From NCBI GenBank assembly GCA_963749295.1, contig CAVVMQ010000007.1:17708-81707 (forward strand): a stretch of 64,000 nt of DNA. The letters run 5' to 3'. The DNA comes from an uncultured Acidobacteriaceae bacterium (GTDB lineage Bacteria > Acidobacteriota > Terriglobia > Terriglobales > Acidobacteriaceae). Below the pieces are notes generated by a model. That model was not told the origin of the DNA, searched no databases, and was given only the letters and a program-made list of their open reading frames with translations. Position 1 is the first letter of the stretch, and each line of letters begins with the position of its first letter. The translations under genes and the position numbers were made by a program. Below, in pieces: positions 5,706 to 63,900 of the stretch.

Positions 5706-5716
5706 AGGTTTAGGGG

Positions 5717-5797
5717 CAAGTGGTAAGTGGCCAGTGGTCAGTGTTCAGAAAACCTCTTTCTTACTGGCCACCGACCACTGGCCACCGACCACTTGCT
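5717..5797. repeat. heptamer-periodic imperfect hairpin (NNAGTGG x4 / CCACTGG-CCACCGA x5)
   Basis: Left arm caagtgg taagtgg ccagtgg tcagtgt (5717-5744). The reverse complement of the right arm (5761-5797) is caagtgg tcggtgg ccagtgg tcggtgg. It lies directly after the ppk2 stop. Confidence 0.8.
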
Positions 5798-5918
5798 TTC
5801 CATTATGTTGCCATCGCAGTACCATAGGGACGATTATCTCTTCTCTCTATCCACCTCTCTAAACTGGGGGCACGCGAACATGGCCGGTCGAAACACGTTT
5901 TGCAAGATCAACTCCGAA

Positions 5919-12765: not shown

Positions 12766-13464
12766 ATGAAATTTGGAGTCATCATCTTTCCCGGCTCGAA
12801 CTGCGATCACGATGCGTTCTGGACGATTCAGCAAGTCGCGCGGCAGCCCGTGACTTTTCTGTGGCATGAATCGCATGATCTGGAGAATTGCGATGCCATC
12901 ATCGTCCCCGGAGGGTTTGCCTTTGGCGACTACCTGCGCACTGGCGCGATTGCGAAGTTCTCTCCGGTGATGGAGTCGGTGCGCCGCTTTGCCGACGACG
13001 GCGGACTGGTGCTCGGAATCTGCAACGGTTTTCAGATCCTGTGCGAGGCAGGGCTTTTGCCGGGGGCGCTCATGCGCAACACCGGATTGAAATACGTCTG
13101 CAAGCCGGTGCAGGTGCGAGTGGAGAATGCTTCCACTCCTTTCACCAACGCCTGTTCGCAGGGAGAAGTGTTGACCATCCCCATCGGCCACATGGAAGGG
13201 AACTACTTCTGCGATCAGGCGACGTTGCACGAGTTGCATCGCGACAACCGCATCGTATTTCGCTATTCCACGCCGGCCGGTGAGATTTCGCCCTCCGCCA
13301 ATCCGAACGGTTCTCTGGACAACATCGCCGGCATCTGCAACGCGGGCGGCAACGTGGTCGGGATGATGCCTCATCCCGAACGGTCATCCGAACCCGCACT
13401 CGGCGGTACTGACGGGATGAAGGTTTTCCATTCCATGGTGGGGGCAGCAGTACCTAGTACCTAG
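12766..13464 (+). CDS. purQ: phosphoribosylformylglycinamidine synthase subunit PurQ (glutaminase)
   Basis: [16 protein letters not shown]..., nucleophile elbow GICNGFQIL, and MPHPER at the C-terminus. The stop codon lies inside the AGTACCT heptamer array. Confidence 0.95.
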
Positions 13465-13640
13465 TACCTAGTACCTGGTACCGAGTACCGAGACCTCGGG
13501 CTCGCGGCTGCTGCTCCTGTTCCAGGGAACAGCGCAAGACCAAGATTCCTCAGCCCCTCGCTTTCGCTCGGGGGTGGGAACGACAATGATTCGCGGAGAG
13601 TCGAGCACTGGGTGCTAGGTACTGGCTACTGGGTACTCAG
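13449..13640. repeat. heptamer-periodic inverted repeat (AGTACCT x7 left arm, GTACTGG-type x5 right arm) enclosing a REP-like core
   Basis: Left arm 13449-13497 and right arm 13605-13640. The interior contains cccctcgctttcgctcggggg, related to the arm sequence of the palindrome at 27.1 kb. Confidence 0.85.
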
Positions 13641-13777
13641 GCCGCGTTTTCCACTCCATGCACATAAATACTGTTTGATAATTTGCAAGCTTGGTGCTAG
13701 TGTCTCGCCGAAGCGGCTTCCTCCCTTCGCCCCCGGAACTAAAACGTGCATGCAAGTGCAAGGGAGGAGTGTGCCCG

Positions 13778-14368: not shown

Positions 14369-14937
14369 TTAGCTTTGCACTGCAGCAAGAGGCAGAGTTT
14401 GAAAGCAGCGGCGTAGTTTCGCCCAGCGGAGATCCAGGAGTAATCGATTACAACCATCGTCGCTCCCGGGTGCTGATGGATTTGGGAAAGCATGAGCAAG
14501 TCATGCTGGAGCGAATCCGCGGCGTGCTGCCTAGAGTGCTGGAGCAGCTGGGAATGGAAGAGTTTCCGGTCACGCGCGTGGAGGCTCAGATCACGGCCAG
14601 CAATGACGGCGACTTTTTCGGGGCGCACAGCGACGCTTCGCACGAACTGATTGCGTCTCGGCGCCTTACGTTCGTTTACTTTTTCCATCGCGCACCACGC
14701 CAGTTCGAAGGCGGGGAGTTGCGCTTGCACGATTCGCGAGGGAGCGAGCGGCCTGCCGGTTCGGGCAGTTATCAGACGGGCGGTTACCAGACGGGCGGTT
14801 ATCAAAGGATCGTGCCGCAGCAAAACCAAATCGTGTTTTTCCCGTGCTCGCTGTTGCACGAGATTACCCCAGTGGAATGCCCGTCGCGGGCTTTCGCTGA
14901 CAGCCGCTTCACCTTGAACGGATGGCTACACAACTAA
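14281..14937 (+). CDS. 2OG-Fe(II) oxygenase, prolyl-4-hydroxylase-like (PF13640-type)
   Basis: HxD in GAHSDAS, distal His in LLHEITPV, 2OG-binding Arg in SRFTLNGW, and the N-terminal VVLDEFLAPQELDELI motif typical of this family. Confidence 0.8.
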   Translation: MGVLDAPAIVRAQCVVLDEFLAPQELDELISFALQQEAEFESSGVVSPSGDPGVIDYNHRRSRVLMDLGKHEQVMLERIRGVLPRVLEQLGMEEFPVTRVEAQITASNDGDFFGAHSDASHELIASRRLTFVYFFHRAPRQFEGGELRLHDSRGSERPAGSGSYQTGGYQTGGYQRIVPQQNQIVFFPCSLLHEITPVECPSRAFADSRFTLNGWLHN

Positions 14938-20677: not shown

Positions 20678-21559
20678 ATGCCAAGCTCGCCGTCATCTTC
20701 TAAATCGAAAGTAGCGGCCATCATCTCGCGTCCGGAGCGCGCTGAGGTTTCGCGAACCGTTCCCGAACTGCTGGCGTGGCTGCAGGCGCACGGCTATAAG
20801 GTTATAGTCGATCCGGAGACCGCCAAATATTCCAGTGGCCACGAGGAAGTGGATCGCTCGCAAATGTCTTCGCGGCCTCTGGATCTGGTTATCGTGTTGG
20901 GCGGCGACGGCACTCTGCTCTCGGCGGTTCGCGACACGGCTGCCACCGACGCGCCGCTGCTCGGCGTGAATCTGGGTTCGCTCGGCTTCCTCACGGACGT
21001 TCCGCTTTCGTCTCTGTTCTCCGTGCTTGATCAAATCGCGCAGGGCCGCGCGACCGTGGAACAGCGTTCCCTGATGCAATGTGATCTGCTGCGCGGGTCA
21101 GAAATATTGGGACGTTACAACGCATTTAACGACGTCGTGGTCAACAAAACCGCTTTGGCTCGCCTCAATAATTACGACCTCTTTATCAACCAGGCGTTCG
21201 TCTCCAGCTACCGTGCCGATGGAATGATCGTGGCCACTCCCACAGGATCGACTGCTTACTCCCTCTCCGCGGGTGGCCCCGTGCTGATGCCCTCGGTCAA
21301 TGCGTTTGTGATCACGCCGGTGGCGCCTCATTCGCTCACGCACCGCCCGCTGGTTGTGCCCGATTCGGCCTTGGTCGAACTTCGGCTGCGCAGCGACGAA
21401 GACGTAGCGTATGTCAGCCTGGATGGGCAGCCGGGGCTCGATTTGAAGGATGGAGACCGGGTCCGGTGTTGCCGCTCAGAACACAAAATCAGCCTGTTCC
21501 GCACCGATGCTGATTTCTTCCATGTGCTTCGCAATAAACTCAAGTGGGGAGAGGGATAG
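20678..21559 (+). CDS. nadK: NAD+ kinase
   Basis: GGDGTLL, NLGSLGFLT and ATPTGSTAYSLSAGGP motifs. Confidence 0.95.
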   Translation: MPSSPSSSKSKVAAIISRPERAEVSRTVPELLAWLQAHGYKVIVDPETAKYSSGHEEVDRSQMSSRPLDLVIVLGGDGTLLSAVRDTAATDAPLLGVNLGSLGFLTDVPLSSLFSVLDQIAQGRATVEQRSLMQCDLLRGSEILGRYNAFNDVVVNKTALARLNNYDLFINQAFVSSYRADGMIVATPTGSTAYSLSAGGPVLMPSVNAFVITPVAPHSLTHRPLVVPDSALVELRLRSDEDVAYVSLDGQPGLDLKDGDRVRCCRSEHKISLFRTDADFFHVLRNKLKWGEG

Positions 21560-21561
21560 GC

Positions 21562-21646
21562 GATTGTTGAGTTGGTGATTGATGATTGATGATTGAAACT
21601 TTGATCCGAGGGATTTTGCAATCAGCAATCAGCATTCAGCAATTTA
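21562..21646. repeat. heptamer-periodic imperfect hairpin (TGATTGA x3+ / CAATCAG x3+)
   Basis: Left arm 21562-21596 and right arm 21619-21646. The arms pair with one A/C mismatch per heptamer. It lies between the convergent nadK and lysA stops, and the lysA TAA (21644-21646) abuts the array. Confidence 0.8.
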
Positions 21647-22992
21647 CAACTCCGCAGAATAAAGTTCCCGCATTTTTTCCCGCTGCCGGATGAGTTTGAC
21701 TGACTTTCGACTCACCAGCACCTCGGCTGGCCGGGGACGTGTGTTGTAGTTCGAGGCCAGCGCCATTCCGTAAGCTCCGGCATCAAGAATCGCAAGCAGA
21801 TCGCCTTCTTCCACGCGAGATAACTCTCGATCGCGTGCAAAGAAATCTCCGGACTCGCACACCGGCCCCACCACATCGACAATCTCTTTCCTGGTGGACG
21901 CATCCTTGTGCTGGGCGTCTTTGCGCAGCACCACGGGAACGATCTCGTGGTAAGCGCTATAGAGCGCGGGCCGGATCAAATCGTTCATGGCGGCATCCAC
22001 CACGAGAAATCGTTTGCCGTCGTTTTGTTTTCTGTAGACGACGGATGTCAGCAGGACGCCGGCAGGCCCCACAATCGCCCGTCCCGGTTCGAGCAAGAGA
22101 TGGACATTCAGACCGCGCAGGGGATTAGTTACTGCGCGCGCATAACTCGCAACATACTCGGCAAACGCCACTCCCGGCTCCTGATAAGCAATCCCGAGGC
22201 CGCCTCCGGTGTCGACGTACTCCACCTGATGCCCGTCAGCGCGCAACTCGCGAACAAAGTCAGCGACTCGAGCCACCGCCTCCGCGAAAGGCGCGACATC
22301 GGTGATCTGCGAGCCGATGTGAACGCTCACTCCCGCGACTTTCAGATATCGCTCTTTGGAGGCCTCGCCATAGAGAGCGCGAGCGCTGCCGATGGGCACT
22401 CCGAACTTGTGCTTGTGCAAACCCGTGGAAATGTAAGGATGAGTATCGGCAGCGACGTCAGGATTCACCCGCAAAGCCACGCGAGCAACCTTGCGCAATC
22501 GAGCGGCGCACTCGGCCAGGGCTCCGAGTTCCGATTCGCTCTCGACATTGAACAGCAAGATCCCGGCTTTCAACGCCGCCTTCATCTCGTCGCGGGACTT
22601 TCCCACGCCGGAGAACACGATCTTCTCGCTGCTCGCCGGTCGGCTGCCAGCACACGATCCAACTCTCCGCCGGAAACTACGTCAAATCCGCACCCTTGGC
22701 GCGCCAGCAGACGGAGAATACTCAGATTGGAATTAGCTTTGACGGAATAGCAGATCGTGTGGGGGACATCGATATTGCGAAACGGATGCTCAAAAGCCGC
22801 CAACCGCTCGTGAATCGTGGTTGCCGAATAAACGTAGAGCGGCGTTCCGTAACGCTTCGCCAATTTGGTAAGCGGGACATCGTCGCAGTGCAGCACTGGG
22901 TCTGCTCCGCGAAAAAGAAATCCCGGCGGCCGCTCGGAGCAAGCCTCGGAATTGAAACGGAGAGGTCCCGTGACTTCGTTACGCCGGGTCAT
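21644..22992 (-). pseudogene. lysA: diaminopimelate decarboxylase, frameshifted between 22626 and 22645 as sequenced
   Basis: The N-terminal fragment 22582-22992 (YSVKANSNLSILRLL, the PLP-Lys region, ...SGGELDRVLAA) continues in another frame as SRPASSEKIVFSGVGKSRDEM... (21644-22618). Confidence 0.9.
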
Positions 22993-24761: not shown

Positions 24762-24789
24762 TGGTTTTTCTATGATAGCAGTCGCTGTC

Positions 24790-24905
24790 AGTACCTAGTA
24801 TCTGGTACCTAGTACCGAGAAAACGGAACGACTACGACAAGACAGGTTCGATTGATGGAGAGAATGCGGTTGCTCGGTACCAGGTACTCGGTACTGGGTA
24901 CTAGC
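24790..24905. repeat. heptamer-periodic inverted repeat (AGTACCT family), second locus
   Basis: Left arm agtacct agtatct ggtacct agtaccg (24790-24819); right arm ctcggtacc aggtact cggtact gggtact (24873-24905). It lies 4 nt from the hpt stop. Confidence 0.85.
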
Positions 24906-24908
24906 GGT

Positions 24909-25460
24909 TCATTCCCGCGGAACGATGCAGACGTTGGCTAAATTGCGGTAGCGCTCGGCGTAGTCGAGTCCGTAGCCCACGACGAATTCATCGGGAATGG
25001 TGAAGCCGACATAGTCGCCTTGCAGAGGCAGTTTGCGACGCGAGGGTTTATCGAGCAGGGCCGCAATCTTCAGCGATCGAGGCTGATGCGCTAGCAGCAG
25101 CTTCTTGAGAACCGTGAGCGTCAGTCCAGTGTCCAGAATGTCTTCCACGACGATTACGTTCTTATCCTTCATCGACTGGTCCACATCTTTGGTCAGTTTC
25201 ACTTCGCCCGTGGAATCCCACCCGCTCTTGAGTTCCTGGGTGGGGCTGGGACGGTTGCCGTAACTGGAGACGCCGATGAAATCGAAGGTTGCATCAAGCT
25301 TTACCTCGCGCGCCAGGTCGGCTAGAAAAATTGCCGAGCCTTTCAAGACGCCGACCAGGATCACAGGCTGGCCCGTGAAGTCGCGCGTAATCTCTGCGCC
25401 AAGTTCGGCAACACGTTTCGCAATCTCGTCCCTGGAAATCAGCACCTTGAGTGCGGTCAT
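24909..25460 (-). CDS. hpt: hypoxanthine phosphoribosyltransferase
   Basis: VLKGSAIFLADL and the PRPP loop VIVVEDILDTGLTL. Confidence 0.95.
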   Translation of the reverse strand: MTALKVLISRDEIAKRVAELGAEITRDFTGQPVILVGVLKGSAIFLADLAREVKLDATFDFIGVSSYGNRPSPTQELKSGWDSTGEVKLTKDVDQSMKDKNVIVVEDILDTGLTLTVLKKLLLAHQPRSLKIAALLDKPSRRKLPLQGDYVGFTIPDEFVVGYGLDYAERYRNLANVCIVPRE

Positions 25461-27022: not shown

Positions 27023-27121
27023 GTCATCCCGAGCGAAGCGAGGGATCTTGGTGTTTGCCCCGCACCAGCGGTGTTGCCACCGCAGCCAAGAACCAAGATC
27101 CCTCGCTTTGCTCGGGATGAC
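27023..27121. repeat. REP/MITE-like palindrome with 29-nt arms gtcatcccgagcgaagcgagggatcttgg
   Basis: Arms at 27023-27051 and 27093-27121 are complementary with one mismatch. It lies between convergent gene ends (27000 and 27135). Confidence 0.9.
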
Positions 27122-40143: not shown

Positions 40144-40395
40144 ATGAAGACCACGCTGGAAATTCCAGATGCCATCTTTCGTCGCGCCAAGTCCGTCGCC
40201 GCCGAGCGCGGGATTCCTTTTCGGGCGCTTGTCTCGGAAGCGCTGGCGGACAAGCTGCGCGCCCAGGGCGAAAGAGACGCCAAGCCGTGGATGAAGACCT
40301 TCGGCAAACTCCGTCGCCTGCGTAAGGAAACGGCCAGAATTAACCTGATCATCGAAGAGGAGTTCGACCGGATCGAGACCGAGGATCGACAGTGA
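40144..40395 (+). CDS. vapB: type II antitoxin (VapB-like; partner of the PIN toxin)
   Basis: 83 aa; MKTTLEIPDAIFRRAKSVAAERGIPFRALVSEAL is a typical antitoxin N-terminal DNA-binding segment; immediately upstream of a PIN gene. Confidence 0.75.
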   Translation: MKTTLEIPDAIFRRAKSVAAERGIPFRALVSEALADKLRAQGERDAKPWMKTFGKLRRLRKETARINLIIEEEFDRIETEDRQ

Positions 40396-40419
40396 GGATC
40401 AACAGTGAGGCTCGACAGT
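40381..40419. repeat. 3 x 13-nt tandem repeat gaggatcgacagt / gaggatcaacagt / gaggctcgacagt at the vapB-vapC junction
   Basis: Copy 1 carries the vapB TGA (40393-40395). Copy 3 carries the vapC GTG (40418-40420). Every copy contains GAGG plus GTGA. Confidence 0.95.
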
Positions 40420-40795
40420 GATTCTGGACACCAATGGGTTGTCAGCCGTCGCAGACGGGGATGCGGCGTTGGAGCCGATTGTTCGCAGCGCTGTCGAGCT
40501 CGCCGTTCCGGTGGTTGTGTTAGGCGAATACCGGTATGGAATTCAGCAATCACGCGACCGGCAGCGCTACGAACAATGGCTGACAGAAACGGTTTGCAAC
40601 TACCGCGTACTCGATGTGGATGAAGATACGGCCATCTCTTATGCTGCGATCCGAACCGAACTCAAGCGAGCCGGAACCCCAATTCCTTCCAACGATGTTT
40701 GGATTGCCGCACTCTGCCGCCAGCATTCCCTCTCCCTCATAAGCCGTGACCAGCACTTCGATCTTGTTCGCGGAATCAAGCGGATAAATTGGTAG
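40418..40795 (+). CDS. vapC: PIN-domain ribonuclease toxin VapC
   Basis: MILDTNGLSAV (first acidic residue), later D/E residues (LDVDED, SNDVWIAA) and ISRDQHF, as in PIN toxins. Confidence 0.85.
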   Translation: MILDTNGLSAVADGDAALEPIVRSAVELAVPVVVLGEYRYGIQQSRDRQRYEQWLTETVCNYRVLDVDEDTAISYAAIRTELKRAGTPIPSNDVWIAALCRQHSLSLISRDQHFDLVRGIKRINW

Positions 40796-43983: not shown

Positions 43984-44018
43984 GGAAACTAGAAACCGGA
44001 AACTAGGAACTGCTAACC
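43984..44018. repeat. solo heptamer array ggaaact agaaacc ggaaact aggaact gctaacc
   Basis: Five 7-nt units. The stop codon (44003-44005) of the minus-strand RNB gene lies inside it. Confidence 0.8.
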
Positions 44019-45475
44019 CTTGCGAAGTCGATAAAGCCGCGCTGGACGTCGACGCGAATCAGTTTGACGCGCAACTTGTCGCCGACGTCCACCCCCTGCT
44101 GCCCCTGAGCCAGCAATCCCTCGACGGGCGGTTGCGCGACGCGGACGAACGTTCCCTTGGGAGTTGCGCCGGTGACGATGGCGTCGAAGATGGCGCCGAT
44201 GCGATTCTGCATCGCGACCGCCGCCAGGCGTTTCGACATCTCACGCTCGACCTTTCGCGCGGCGTCTCCACGCTCGGTGCAGTTGGCGGCGATCAGGGTA
44301 AGTTCGTTATCCGAGTAAGGATTAGGCTGGCCCCCGAGCATAGCTTTCAGAATTCTTTGCGTCACCATGTCAGCGAAGCGGCGGTTGGGAGCGGTGGAGT
44401 GCGTGTAATCCTGAACCGCCAGGCCGAAGTGTCCGGGTGCAGGCTCACCAGGGCGCTCGAGCACGTATTCCCCCGGGCCAATCAACTTAATCACGGCCAG
44501 GGAAAGGTCGGCAAAATGATCCGGATCGGTCGTTTTGCGGTTGATTAGAAAATCGTTGAGGGCTTTAGAATCGGGATCGGCTGGAAGCTTCTCACTATAG
44601 GTCGCGGCCAGTTGGACGATGCGGTCCCAGCGTTCTGGCTGTTTTACGATGCGTCGCAAAGAAGAAACCTTTTCGAGCATCCGCGCCACCACGCCATTGG
44701 CGGCAATCATGAAGTCTTCAATCAACTCGGTGGCCCGGTTTTTCTGCTGCTTCACCACGTCAACCACCTGCGCATTCAGCACCATGGGAAGAGTTTCTTC
44801 GGTTTCGAGGCTGAGCGCTCCATTTTCATAGCGCCGGGCCTTCAGTTTCTGCGCCACCACGTCCTGCAAGCGCAGTTGCGCCTGCAGATCGGCGGAGGCG
44901 GCCACCTTCGGCGGTGCCGCTGCCGTGCCCTCCAGCCACGCTCCCAGCGAGTTGTATTGAAGTTGCGCCTGGTTGCGAACCAGGGCGCGATAGACGTCGC
45001 TGGAAGTGACGTGGCCACCGCTATCCACCACAAATTCGGTGACCACGCTCAGGCAGTCTTGCTGTTCCAGCAGGGAAGTCTTGCCCGTGGAAAGCTCCTC
45101 CGGCAGCATGGGGAAGTTTCGGATTCCAGTGTAGACCGTCGTCGTTTCGCGAGCGGCATGCTGGTCAATGGCGCTCTGCTTGGGGACGAATGCGTCTACA
45201 TCGGCAATACCGATCAGAACTCTGGTGTCGCCGTTCGACAAGCGTTCGGCAACCTCGATCTGATCCAAATCGCGGGACGTGTCGTTGTCGATGGACGACC
45301 ACAATTGGCTCCGCAGATCGCGAACCGTTCCCGCAGCAGCGATGGCGGGAGGATTCGCCCGCAATTGTTGCAGTTGCTGCTGGACCGCAGGTGAGAAGTC
45401 CGGTTGAAATCCGTGTTGTTGCACGACGGTTTTTGCGACGGCCTGCAGGTCGATGTGAGAGGAGTTGGCCGTCAC
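44003..45475 (-). CDS. RNB-domain exoribonuclease (RNase II/R family) with a C-terminal S1 domain
   Basis: HFGLAVQDYTHSTAPNRRFADMVTQR (RNB motif) and an S1-like FDAIVTGATPKGTFVRV...VKLIRVDVQRGFIDF. Confidence 0.85.
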   Translation of the reverse strand: MTANSSHIDLQAVAKTVVQQHGFQPDFSPAVQQQLQQLRANPPAIAAAGTVRDLRSQLWSSIDNDTSRDLDQIEVAERLSNGDTRVLIGIADVDAFVPKQSAIDQHAARETTTVYTGIRNFPMLPEELSTGKTSLLEQQDCLSVVTEFVVDSGGHVTSSDVYRALVRNQAQLQYNSLGAWLEGTAAAPPKVAASADLQAQLRLQDVVAQKLKARRYENGALSLETEETLPMVLNAQVVDVVKQQKNRATELIEDFMIAANGVVARMLEKVSSLRRIVKQPERWDRIVQLAATYSEKLPADPDSKALNDFLINRKTTDPDHFADLSLAVIKLIGPGEYVLERPGEPAPGHFGLAVQDYTHSTAPNRRFADMVTQRILKAMLGGQPNPYSDNELTLIAANCTERGDAARKVEREMSKRLAAVAMQNRIGAIFDAIVTGATPKGTFVRVAQPPVEGLLAQGQQGVDVGDKLRVKLIRVDVQRGFIDFARVSSS

Positions 45476-51394: not shown

Positions 51395-52095
51395 AGGAGT
51401 TCTTCTCTTTCTGTTTCGACTGCGCCTGTTTCCCCGGCAGCTGTTTCCGCGGCAGCTGTTTCTGCCGCAGCTATTGCTGCTGAGAATGTTTCTGCCGCGA
51501 CTGCTTCGGTTGCAAATAAGGGTTGAGGGGTGATGGGCGCCGGTGCGGAGTGCTGCTCGATGGCTTCGGCCCAGCGGGAAGGTCTCGGCGCTTCCCGAAG
51601 CGCGCGCGAACGAGCCTCGCTGACCGCGCGGACGCTGGAAATTTTCCGGCAAGCTTCCATGATTCCCCAGCGCTGCGAGGTAGCCGCCGCAGCCTGAGCG
51701 AGCAGGGCTGCGATCAACTCCTTGTGCAGGGCATCTGCGTCCGGCTCCGGCGGCGCTTCGTCAGAATGCGGCGCGGCCGCAAGGTACTCGGGACCGCCCA
51801 CGAAGAAAGCAATTCTCTGCGGAGGAGTGGCGCTGCGAAGGTCCGTGCAGAACTGATCGCGGCTGGCAGTTTCGCCGGCTGCGCTGATGAGCACCAGATT
51901 GTACAAATCCGCCCTCCACCAACAGCGCGCCTCGAGAACATCGGCCGCGCAATCCACGTCGATGCCAAGTCTTCGCATCACGTCGGCCCGCAGATCGCGT
52001 TTCGTCTGCGAGGTATCGAGCAGCAATACGCGCTTCCTTTTAGCCCCAATGCCATGCGGATTCGGCTCCGGCAATGCGACGACAGGTGTGGTCAT
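51391..52095 (-). CDS. REC-like (probable pseudo-receiver) protein with an Ala/Glu-rich repeat tail
   Basis: N-terminal KRVLLLDTS...YNLVLIS receiver-like fold, with Ser where the acceptor Asp is expected. The tail AAETFSAAIAAAETAAAETAAGETGAVETE is encoded by 3 x 15-nt repeats (51436-51480). Confidence 0.6.
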   Translation of the reverse strand: MTTPVVALPEPNPHGIGAKRKRVLLLDTSQTKRDLRADVMRRLGIDVDCAADVLEARCWWRADLYNLVLISAAGETASRDQFCTDLRSATPPQRIAFFVGGPEYLAAAPHSDEAPPEPDADALHKELIAALLAQAAAATSQRWGIMEACRKISSVRAVSEARSRALREAPRPSRWAEAIEQHSAPAPITPQPLFATEAVAAETFSAAIAAAETAAAETAAGETGAVETEREELL

Positions 52096-60959: not shown

Positions 60960-63900
60960 ATGAATCGTAGCTGTCTTTATTGCGCGCTCTGTCTCGCACT
61001 CATTTTCTCGCTGCAGTTTTGCGCCATACCAGCTGTATCGCAAACCGCCGCGCCCCAGGCCGCCGCTCCCGGCATCTTACGCGGTCAAGTAACCGACCCC
61101 TCCGGGGCCGCCATCGCCAAAGCCGATGTCATCATGACGCCGGCGGCCACGTCTTCGACTCCCATCAAAACGCAAACCGACGGGCAGGGCGCGTATGAAT
61201 TCAAAACGCTGGCCGCCGGTCAGTACTCGTTGACCGTTGTCGCTCAGGGATTCGCCCTCTATGAAAACGACAACGTGGTCATCACCAGCGGTCAGCCCCT
61301 GCGCCTCAACGTCGCGATGACCATCCAGGTCGAGGAGCAGAAGATCCAGGTGTCCGATACCGTGCCGACCGTAGATGTGAATCCCGCAAACAACGCCGGG
61401 GCCATAATCATCTCGGGTAAAGAACTCGACGCGCTGCCCGACGATCCCGACGAATTGCTGACTGACTTGCAGGCGCTGGCCGGGCCTTCCGCGGGACCGA
61501 ACGGCGGTCAGCTCTACATCGACGGTTTCACGGCCGGTCAGCTTCCTCCGAAGTCGTCGATTCGCGAGATTCGCATCAATCAGAATCCGTTCTCGGCGGA
61601 ATACGACAAGCTCGGCTACGGCCGGATTGAAATCTTTACCAAGCCGGGCACGGACAAATTTCATGGCCAGTTCATGGTCAACGGGAACGATTCGGCATTC
61701 AATTCCTCCGACCCGTTTGCCGGGGCTGAGCCAAACTATGACTCTGTGCAGTACAGCGGAAACATTGGCGGCCCGATCAATAAGAAGTCGTCCTTCTTTG
61801 TCAACGTCGATCACAGAAATATCAACGACATCGCCGCCATCGATGCCCAGACTCTCGATCAGAACCTGAGTCCTGTTCAGACCCTCGAGTCCATACCCAC
61901 CCCCCGCCAGCGCACTAACATCAGCGGGCGCCTGGACTATGGGTTCACCAAGAACAACACGCTGACCGCGCGATACCAATACTACCGCGACACGCAGACG
62001 AATAACGGCATTGGCCAAACCACCTTGCCCACGCAGGCATACGACTCCACGTCCACCGAGCACACGCTGCAGATCGGTGACACCCAGGTCTTCGGCGCGA
62101 AAGTGGTCAACGAAACGCGCTTTCAGTATCTCCGCGACAACAGCGGCTTAACATCATTGGATACGAATCCGCAGGTCACCGTACCCGGCGCATTTACCGG
62201 CGGCGGCAACGGCACCATCAGCGCCGACCACCAGGATCACTACGAACTGCAGAACTATACCTCCGTGATTCACGGCAATCACACCATCAAGTTTGGAGTC
62301 CGTCTGCGCGCCTTGCGCGATGACAGCAATTCGAACGCGGGCTTCAACGGAACATTCACATTCTCGTCCCTGAACCGGACAACAGATACTCCGGCCAATT
62401 GCGCGACTGATCTTCAAACCAACCCTAACCCCGACCCACCCTGTCCCATCTCTCTTGCATTTGCCCTGGCGCAGATACAGAACTCCGGCGGGCAACGGTG
62501 GCGCGCCTCCGTTCGCAACCCAATTGACGTTCACCCAAGGCTCTCCCCTTGCCAGCGTCACAACCTACGACGCCGGCCTCTATGTGCAGGATGATTGGAA
62601 AGTCCGGTCAAACCTCACGGTCAGCTTTGGTCTGCGCTACGAAACCCAAAACCATATCCGTGATCATGTAGATCTAGCGCCGCGGTTGGGCGTCGCGTGG
62701 GGCGTCGGCGGAAAGAGTGGTCCCCCCATCGTGGTGATTCGCGGCGGAGCGGGCATCTTCTATGACCGGTTCCAATCGATGCAGATCCTGCAGGCCGAGC
62801 GGCTGAACGGCATCACCCAGCAGCAGTTCGTCATCAACAATCCCACCTGTTTTACCGGAGTCGACACCGCGCCTCTCAACCCCTCTTTTTCGAACTGTGG
62901 AACGGTGAGTTCCAGCACTTCCACCATCTATCAGATAAATCCCTCACTCTACGCGCCCTACACGCTGCAATCCGCCATCAGCGTCGAGCGGCAACTCACC
63001 AAGTCTGCCACTCTCTCCGTCACGTATCTGAATTCGCGCGGCTTCGATCAACTGCTCAGCATCAATGCCAACGCGCCCCTCCCGGGCACACCCTGCAGTC
63101 CCTGCCTGCGGCCCAACCCAAACGGCGGCAACATCTACCAGTACGTCTCCGAAGGAGTGTTCCGCCAGAACCAGCTCATCGTGAACACTAATATTCGCGC
63201 CAGCACCAAGCTGCAGCTGTTTGGCTACTACACGCTCAACTACGCCAACAGCGATACTTCCGGGGTCTCAAGTTTTGCGTCAAACTCTTACGACATCAGC
63301 CAGGACTACGGCCGGGCATCGTTCGACACCCGCCACCGCCTGTTTCTAGGCGGCTCCATCGCCATGCCTTACGCCCTTCGTCTCAGCCCATTCCTGGTGG
63401 CGAGTTCCGGCTCACCCTTCAACATTCTCACCAGCACCGACTTGAACGGTGACTCGATTTTCAACGACCGGCCCGGCCTGCTCTCCACGGCTACCTGTCC
63501 CACCACCGTATCTCCGGGGGCAGGATCGTCGGTTTATTGCACGCCCTTGGGAACGTTCGACGCTTCACCAACGGCAGGCGAAAAGCTGGTCCCGATTAAC
63601 TACGGCACCGGCCCGGCGCATGTCAGCCTTAACCTGCGGCTAAGCAAGACGTTCGGCTTTGGCCCCAAAGTAAAAGGCACGGGCAACCGGGGCGACCAGG
63701 GTAATCAGGGTAACCAGGGTAACCAGGGTGGCCCGGGCGGCGGTGGTGGCGGCGGCGGTCGAGGTGGGGGTGGTCCGCGCGGTCCGCTGTTCGGCGGCGG
63801 GGGCGGCCCCATGATGGGAGGCGGCGGTTCCGATCGCCGTTACAGCTTCACGCTGAGTGCTTCAGCCCGCAACGTGTTCAACAAGGTGAACCTTGCCAAT

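Follow-up and report, generated by a model that had tools for sequence, protein, structure and literature searches.

Five intergenic loci in the window carry tandem arrays of 7-nt units (heptamers), and at four of them two such arrays face each other as the complementary arms of a hairpin (Table 1). The window is the whole stretch of DNA analysed, 64,000 nt (C7:17708-81707) from the genome of an uncultured Acidobacteriaceae bacterium, an assembly of 4.99 Mb in 18 contigs with 58% GC and 95% completeness; this genome is labelled G000, other G numbers are related genomes, and C numbers are contigs of G000. With the neighbours named by Pfam assignment, the arrays adjoin or overlap the stop codons of PPK2, of purQ, of an NAD kinase gene and a convergent lysA-like gene, of hpt, and of an RNase II-family (RNB/S1) gene, which bears out the placement of all five near 3' ends of coding sequences in a first-pass annotation made from the letters alone. 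Hairpin 4 lies between the 3' end of hpt and the 5' end of a GAF-SpoIIE phosphatase gene, both genes being on the minus strand.

Tandem Repeats Finder (TRF) recovers 3.7-5.9 copies, or period-14 equivalents, at each of the five loci, and the inverted-repeat search and RNA folds agree with the earlier description of four inverted complementary pairs and one lone arm. At the first four loci the inverted arms are 27-36 nt long with a complementarity of 75-88%, or ~1-1.7 mismatches per 7 nt, close to the single mismatch per heptamer originally estimated. The predicted folds are stable at hairpin 1 (5706-5806; -54.3 kcal/mol, z -8.0), hairpin 2 (13440-13650; -104.1 kcal/mol, z -4.6), hairpin 3 (21556-21656; -33.0 kcal/mol, z -3.7) and hairpin 4 (24780-24912; -56.3 kcal/mol, z -5.4); for the array at 43984 the inverted-repeat search found no partner downstream, and the solo arm does not fold (z +0.8).

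Table 1. Heptamer arms of the five window loci and the repeat nested in one of them (window positions; TRF column: array found, with copies of the 7-nt unit unless a period of 14 is given).
Feature	Position	Strand	Units or sequence	TRF array	Setting
Hairpin 1, 5' arm	5716..5751		AGT-type heptamers AGTGGTA/AGTGGCC/AGTGGTC	5719-5748 (4.3 copies)	11 nt past PPK2 stop codon
Hairpin 1, 3' arm	5761..5796		ACT-type heptamers ACTGGCC/ACCGACC	5763-5793 (4.4 copies)	
Hairpin 2, 5' arm	13449..13498		(AGTACCT)n then AGTACCG	13449-13489 (5.9 copies)	Covers last purQ codons, provides TAG stop
Hairpin 2, 3' arm	13602..13637		AGGTACT/GGGTACT units	13607-13637 (period 14 x 2.2)	
Hairpin 3, 5' arm	21562..21598		TGATTGA units	21562-21596 (4.9 copies)	3 nt past NAD kinase stop
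Hairpin 3, 3' arm	21616..21652		GCAATCA units	21618-21643 (3.7 copies)	Overlaps stop codon of convergent lysA-like gene
Hairpin 4, 5' arm	24790..24819		AGTACCT/AGTATCT/GGTACCT units	24790-24816 (3.9 copies)	
Hairpin 4, 3' arm	24873..24904		CGGTACC/AGGTACT/GGGTACT units	24873-24902 (4.3 copies)	hpt stop ~4 nt from 24904 end
Lone arm	43984..44018	-	AGTTCCT AGTTTCC GGTTTCT AGTTTCC on minus strand	43984-44010 (period 14 x 1.9)	
Small dispersed repeat (~44-68 nt)	13524..13591	+	AGATTCCTC.GCCCCTCGCTTTCGCTCGGGGGT.GGAA.GACAA		In hairpin 2 loop

The arrays can overwrite a gene's last codons and provide its stop codon. Both purQ (window 12766-13464) and the RNB/S1 ribonuclease gene (44003-45475), whose TAG stop at 44003-44005 lies inside the 43984 array, take their final codons and stop from heptamer arrays, and their C-terminal residues are therefore unlike those of relatives; the purQ product in G000 ends in ...MVGAAVPST, directly before the stop, and differs in this from all 12 relatives examined. 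The closest purQ relatives are found in Terriglobia/Acidobacteriaceae metagenome-assembled genomes (MAGs).

The five loci belong to a population that extends over the whole genome and numbers about 180 hairpins and about 185 lone arms. A genome-wide scan, which the first-pass annotation had proposed, found an enrichment far above what chance would give: period 7 is the commonest tandem period in G000, with 611 TRF rows, 454 of them with at least three copies, compared to 106 such rows at period 6 and 74 at period 8. A stricter detector counted 83 arrays with a lag of 7, compared to 21 and 3 with lags of 6 and 8, and the trinucleotide AGT phased four times occurs 199 times at a spacing of 7 nt and not once at spacings of 6 or 8. 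Merging left 463 period-7 arrays; 101 neighbouring pairs are inverted and agree in their units, another 80 arrays have a significant inverted match no more than 300 nt away, and about 60% of the arrays therefore stand in a hairpin architecture. The arms measure ~32 nt each, the mean fold energy of the hairpins is -54 kcal/mol, and the loop sequences are unique across the hairpins of the genome. Left and right arm lengths, compared as a possible sign of selection for pairing, were uncorrelated (rho 0.06).

Genes were called genome-wide with a crude longest-ORF (open reading frame) caller, under which 87% of the genome is ORF-covered; only ~38 of 366 elements (~10%) lie inside these calls. In co-directional gaps, 96 of 162 elements begin no more than 15 nt past the upstream stop codon, at a median distance of 6 nt. 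The gaps occupied are tandem in 162 cases, convergent in 57 and divergent in 46, which for divergent gaps amounts to a mild depletion and not to exclusion, and some elements stand directly before start codons; the gene-end location claimed from the window thus holds genome-wide as an enrichment at 3' ends, but not as a rule.

Tight adjacency to stop codons and very stable stems are what might be expected of selected host regulatory elements, be they bidirectional terminators, stabilisers of mRNA 3' ends, or arrays bound by a Csp/S1-type protein that reads single-stranded 7-nt units, as proposed for TAACTGA arrays; hairpins of another kind at the same site in relatives, and lone arrays of ACT type directly before start codons, as in the Beggiatoaceae (PMC4679880), would also suit this explanation. 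It is nevertheless quite improbable. Of 56 hairpins in co-directional gaps only 3 are followed by TTTT in the next 12 nt, and a stem length of ~30 bp or more is atypical of intrinsic terminators, which led to the rejection of canonical intrinsic terminators as a candidate; the transcribed strand is no more stable in folding than its complement, and divergent gaps are occupied as well. Moreover, of the window's four paired hairpins two have no counterpart at the orthologous site in any relative examined, and are hence not conserved functions of the genes beside them, and gene ends are damaged where the C-termini of the purQ and RNB products have been replaced.

The units show a common core. AGT or ACT occurs in the unit of 301 of the 463 arrays (65%, compared to 14% expected), the consensus is AGT[G/T/A][G/C/T][T/C]C, and the most frequent units are AGTGGTC (115), AGTGGCC, AGTTCTC, AGTTTCC, AGTACCG and AGTACCT. 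The arms have a fixed polarity, in which the AGT-strand array comes first, as the 5' arm, and the ACT-strand array follows as the 3' arm (28:1 for AGTGGTC followed by ACCACTG); since a hairpin reads identically on both strands, this polarity is a real structural property. The stem continues outward into a foot in which purines predominate on the 5' side and pyrimidines on the 3' side (RRRRG-C-AGT... / ...ACT-G-CYYYY), and it often extends inward as AAAAC...GTTTT. Lone arrays follow the same sense: by gene 3' ends 26 of 32 are of AGT type on the sense strand, and by 5' ends 19 of 22 are of ACT type. The earlier view of a shared architecture with differing units consequently stands for the architecture, whereas the units are not independent of one another.

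Comparison of orthologous sites shows how changeable the window elements are. Across the genus most species have AGT-phased arrays, at 0-133 hits per genome, as do some members of the sister family. The element at 5716-5796 is unique to G000, without a counterpart at the orthologous site in G003, G007, G010, G025, G022 and G030, and the whole 13449-13637 element is missing in 12 of 12 same-genus relatives examined. The 21562 hairpin is kept in G007, with the units TGATTGC/TGATTGT, and absent in G003, G030, G012 and G022; the 24790 hairpin is common to G000, G003, G007 and G030, with differing copy number, unit variants and loops, and G010 and G012 have plain hairpins at this hpt position. Each arm is homogenised on its own, and array copy number shifts between species; the periodic A.G mismatch in the 21562 hairpin results from homogenisation of only the left arm to TGATTGA in G000.

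These differences between species bear on the proposal that the elements are autonomous simple sequence repeats (SSRs), in which polymerase slippage lengthens ordinary 3' hairpins, or any short palindromes, 7 nt at a time (an idea attributed to Mrazek 2007), with no mobile element involved and with PF05635 genes (see below) as unrelated cargo that chanced to enter such hairpins or was kept in them. Copy-number differences between orthologous loci and separate homogenisation of the arms are in keeping with slippage, as are the unique loops, which indicate that whole hairpins are not copied, the plain hairpins of G010 and G012 where the heptamer hairpin is missing, the excess of heptamer SSRs in many phyla (PMC4692102), and the presence of arrays in a few genomes that lack PF05635. 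Slippage alone, however, leaves the AGT core, the fixed arm polarity and the conserved purine/pyrimidine foot unexplained, and it does not account for elements that arise whole where relatives have an unrelated short spacer; as a complete explanation it is unlikely.

Heptamer arms of the same kind enclose protein-coding genes. G000 has two PF05635 genes, located between tldD and pmbA in one case and between nuoD and nuoE in the other, both co-directional with their neighbours, both matching TIGR02436, and both with inverted heptamer arrays, of AGCAATT type, on either side; for the tldD-pmbA protein the closest solved structure is PDB 2GSC, the S23p pentamer XCC0516 of Xanthomonas. PF05635 is homologous to Avd of diversity-generating retroelements (DGRs; PMC10053308). 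Among 31 PF05635 loci, one per related genome, ~24 have flanking inverted arms of lag-7 periodicity, with units that include AGTGGTC, AGTTCTC, CGGGCTT, AGTACCG and AGCTTCT, the families of the gene-less hairpins in G000, and 26 of the 31 genes point the same way as their upstream neighbour. Two or three of these loci have period-8 arms. Around PF05635 genes or what is left of them, inverted arms are also built from period-8 arrays, for example AAGTTTCA/AGGTTTCA; ATT phased at lag 8 is found 87 times in the genome, and the 7-nt step is accordingly not absolute.

When the flanks of the relatives' cassettes were mapped onto G000, orthologous sites were found as full cassette, truncated remnant, arms only, and empty. 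Empty sites such as C13:146574-146752 (stop, 21 nt, ATG) indicate that the cassette fills exactly the gap from stop codon to ATG. At C13:101954-102062 G000 has arms only, at a site that in G025 is occupied by a complete cassette whose arms consist of AGTGGTC units, and the arms of the gene-less hairpin at C13:139398-139559 match those of the G000 nuoD-nuoE cassette. C17:14919-15256 holds a 5'-truncated PF05635 remnant (63% identity over 35 aa) between period-8 arms, with the whole gene in G002 and G004. This remnant was detected only by comparison with orthologous cassettes; a hidden Markov model search for PF05635 remnants in the G000 hairpin loops scored only the two intact genes. At the same site the interior of the cassette runs the opposite way in G004 from its orientation in G000 and G002, with unchanged flanks, the expected product of recombination between inverted arms.

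The two features also go together among genomes. Counts of AGT-phased arrays and of PF05635 genes are correlated across 41 relatives (rho 0.65), in the sister family (rho 0.90), and across 151 Acidobacteriota genomes of 107 genera (rho 0.73); 59 of 64 genomes without PF05635 are also without arrays, and of the 62 genomes with arrays 57 carry the gene (Fisher p 1e-13). This strong genome-level dependence, together with the truncated-gene intermediate, further argues against slippage as the sole origin of the arrays.

Hairpins and cassettes share arm types, architecture, polarity and position, and a link of the hairpins to PF05635 cassettes that resemble the intervening sequences (IVS) of 23S rRNA is well supported but not yet proven. 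The favoured explanation, to which a probability of about 0.6 is assigned, is that the window hairpins are gene-less or decayed relatives of such a cassette. In such a cassette a small PF05635/TIGR02436 gene for a four-helix-bundle protein (S23p, Avd-like) lies between two inverted arrays, each of 4-5 heptamers and with the AGT-strand arm leading, and the whole occupies the gap from one gene's stop codon to the next start codon. The window hairpins would descend from such cassettes or arise by the same process; loss of the gene would leave a ~32-bp stem with its short purine/pyrimidine foot, and array length would change by replication slippage. By analogy with the 23S rRNA IVS, the stem in read-through transcripts may serve as a substrate of RNase III, which would split the transcript between cistrons and leave half-stems on its ends; an ORF with an RNase III signature is present on contig C5 of G000. 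The elements may be mostly selfish or neutral and persist because they are tolerated only at gene boundaries.

Several observations weigh against descent from cassettes. The loops of the five window loci (9-103 nt) contain no PF05635 ORF or remnant; as they are short, unique and remnant-free, cassette descent has to be argued for the window from analogy with loci elsewhere. No copy of the dominant AGTGGTC family in the 95%-complete G000 assembly bears a gene. Within the window's genus, array and PF05635 counts are uncorrelated (rho 0.14), a few arrays occur in 5 of the 64 genomes without PF05635, and the association tests cover AGT-phased arrays only, with statistics that ignore kinship. The distance statistics rest on crude ORF calls. 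Fold stability does not differ between sense and antisense strands (29 vs 27), with no asymmetry and no G.U signature, and so far gives no sign of selection on RNA. Finally, events could have run the other way, with PF05635 genes landing preferentially in pre-existing hairpins.

Mobility by other means was also considered. Elements resembling REPINs, non-autonomous doublets of repetitive extragenic palindromic (REP) sequences moved by a Y1 transposase (REP-associated tyrosine transposase, RAYT), or MITEs (miniature transposable elements with inverted repeats) of an insertion sequence would likewise be hairpin-forming inverted doublets, extragenic, abundant and lineage-specific (REPINs: PMC3116915), and the genome has six matches to PF01797 (Y1 transposase). 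Such an origin is very improbable: five of the six Y1 genes have no heptamer array within 1.2 kb and are flanked by their own, different palindromes, the arms are periodic arrays of many unit types and not one conserved REP, the elements have no conserved interior, and no target-site duplication was recognised in filled compared to empty sites. RAYT/REPIN mobility was rejected because the Y1 genes carry other REPs, and copy-and-paste of whole hairpins, as in MITEs, because the loops are unique, with no duplication and no transposase between the arms; only the 13449 loop holds a dispersed repeat. Retro-mobility driven by the genome's own reverse transcriptase, an idea prompted by the homology to Avd, is likewise not supported, as the 95%-complete genome has no match to PF00078, although past activity or an undetected enzyme is possible. 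With unique loops and no association with RAYT-like genes, the elements are unlike an ordinary REP family, as the first-pass annotation had maintained. It had also named membership of the arms in one known REP or MITE family as an outcome that would count against it; no such family was found, but fuller copies place the arms in the family of the PF05635 cassettes, which comes close to that outcome in spirit.

The Y1 (RAYT-like, PF01797) matches lie at C6:245895-246410, C13:158999-159553, C3:586746-587489, C14:128101-128862, C14:51184-51537 and C13:119651-119932. Several have palindromes of their own on either side, for example gccccacttctcgcaaagaacgcgagaaatggggc and gtaggaccgggtctctgacccggtc, and the six appear to be ordinary REP-RAYT systems that coexist with the heptamer hairpins.

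Beyond cassette descent, a more comprehensive interpretation is possible, with the odds against it: by analogy with RAYTs and REPINs, the hairpins and the PF05635/Avd-like gene may constitute one undescribed, very widespread self-propagating element, whose protein would act in trans on 7-nt arrays, and of which the short tandemly repeated repetitive (STRR) sequences, GGGAATC pairs, TAACTGA arrays, the present hairpins and protein-coding 23S IVS would be different states.

Other repeats occur within and near the window elements. The dispersed repeat in the loop of hairpin 2 has a hairpin-forming version of ~44 nt (AGATTCCTC.GCCCCTCGCTTTCGCTCGGGGGT.GGAATGACAA) and at least five further copies in G000 (C10:68140-68192, C3:720326-720393, C3:727424-727467, C14:149333-149376 and C8:76822-76861), most of them inside or adjoining heptamer arms of AGTACC type. 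It recalls the small dispersed repeats within heptamer arrays of Nostoc that Elhai is said to have described in 2008. Between convergent ORFs, window positions 27023-27121 hold a 99-nt palindromic element (gtcatcccgagcgaagcgagggatcttgg ... ccaagatccctcgctttgctcgggatgac), and a similar element lies inside another hairpin of G000 (C17:41857-42257); this looks like a separate REP-like family. The remaining TRF repeats of the window, at 40370-40421 (13-nt x4), 51426-51498 (15/30-nt x4.9), 14762-14804 (15-nt x2.9) and 63695-63729 (9-nt x3.9), are mostly ORF-covered and apparently unrelated to the heptamer elements.

Heptamer repeats have served as fingerprinting targets in cyanobacteria since 1990, and were noted in 2007 as the SSR class over-represented in many bacteria. 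If the link to PF05635 is true, two unexplained phenomena, the heptamer repeats and the 23S IVS with an S23p ORF, would become one testable puzzle, with a candidate protein partner (a relative of DGR Avd with solved pentameric structures), a defined nucleic-acid target, a predicted RNase III step, and a naturally occurring range of sites in the full, truncated, gene-less and empty states. For annotation, the elements matter in that they rewrite gene 3' ends, as in purQ and the RNB-family gene, and replace the spacer before downstream genes; they probably cut operon transcripts, and they break assemblies of soil MAGs.

The repeat class to which the window arrays belong, which the first-pass annotation could not match to a described one, is already known as heptamer SSRs, STRR sequences and convergent GGGAATC pairs of Xanthomonas; what is new here is its variant in Acidobacteria, with many unit families, an AGT core and fixed polarity. 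The STRR units CCCCAGT and CAACAGT of heterocystous cyanobacteria, reportedly described by Mazel and colleagues in 1990, contain AGT/ACT as well. A cyanobacterial origin of the DNA, which STRR had brought to mind at first, was rejected: the cyanobacterial HIP1 octamer (GCGATCGC) is not enriched in G000, and the purQ relatives are Terriglobia/Acidobacteriaceae MAGs. The relevant literature on heptamer SSRs (PMC4692102, PMC4679880, PMC4990558) includes the over-representation of heptamer SSRs in bacteria and the heptamers of Calothrix (both as cited in PMC4692102). Acidobacteria are mentioned in neither PMC4692102 nor PMC4679880, and a literature search turned up no report of a link between PF05635 and intergenic heptamer hairpins.

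The closest parallel in architecture is found in Xanthomonas campestris and X. axonopodis, where 70-75 cases per genome among ~185 GGGAATC arrays are inverted pairs in convergent arrangement that could form stem-loops (Rehm et al. 2015; PMC4692102). As in G000, these arrays are intergenic, consist of ~4 heptamers each, form inverted pairs, are rarer between divergent genes, and vary in length and sequence between related species, while the singular or paired type is usually kept (PMC4692102); Xanthomonas also encodes a PF05635 protein, XCC0516 (PDB 2GSC). The units in G000, in contrast, are not G-tracts and have no G-quadruplex capacity (none of AGTGGTC, AGTGGCC, AGTTCTC, AGTTTCC and AGTACCG contains the G3 run of the GGGAATC/GGGGAYT subclass), many unit families coexist in one genome, and the Xanthomonas study reports no link to a PF05635 cassette, no AGT core and no fixed arm polarity (PMC4692102). 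TAACTGA arrays, which in Beggiatoaceae, Cyanobacteria and Bacteroidetes immediately precede start codons, are likewise tandem heptamers, mostly intergenic, with AGT/ACT in the unit; they end 1 nt before the start codon in "forward" orientation, matching the ACT-type arms and lone arrays at 5' ends in G000 (PMC4679880). STRR and TAACTGA repeats differ in that they occur in other taxa, have one dominant unit per genome and are described mainly as direct arrays, with only one inverted set in the Beggiatoa genome (PMC4679880).

The REPIN/RAYT system resembles the present one in its abundant extragenic hairpin doublets, a population dependent on one small repeat-flanked gene (PMC3116915); it is unlike it in that the associated gene of G000 encodes a four-helix-bundle protein without known catalytic activity and not a Y1 transposase, that the arms are periodic arrays, and that the RAYT-like genes of G000 itself carry other repeats. 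The 23S IVS of Coxiella burnetii and Leptospira differ in location, as they interrupt helix 45 or 25 of the 23S rRNA; all loci studied here, which did not include the rRNA genes of the assembly, sit between protein-coding genes, none in either helix, the window loci are without an ORF, and cleavage in G000 is something we only infer. Like the G000 elements, these IVS have heptamers in the stem and a long inverted-repeat stem (PMC4990558). The Coxiella example combines an S23p ORF, a 28-bp stem, strain-variable GACAGAT heptamers (2-3 in tandem, on the 5' side) and an RNase III cut at the first repeat; in 23S IVS generally the ORF decays while the stem persists and is cut by RNase III (PMC4990558).

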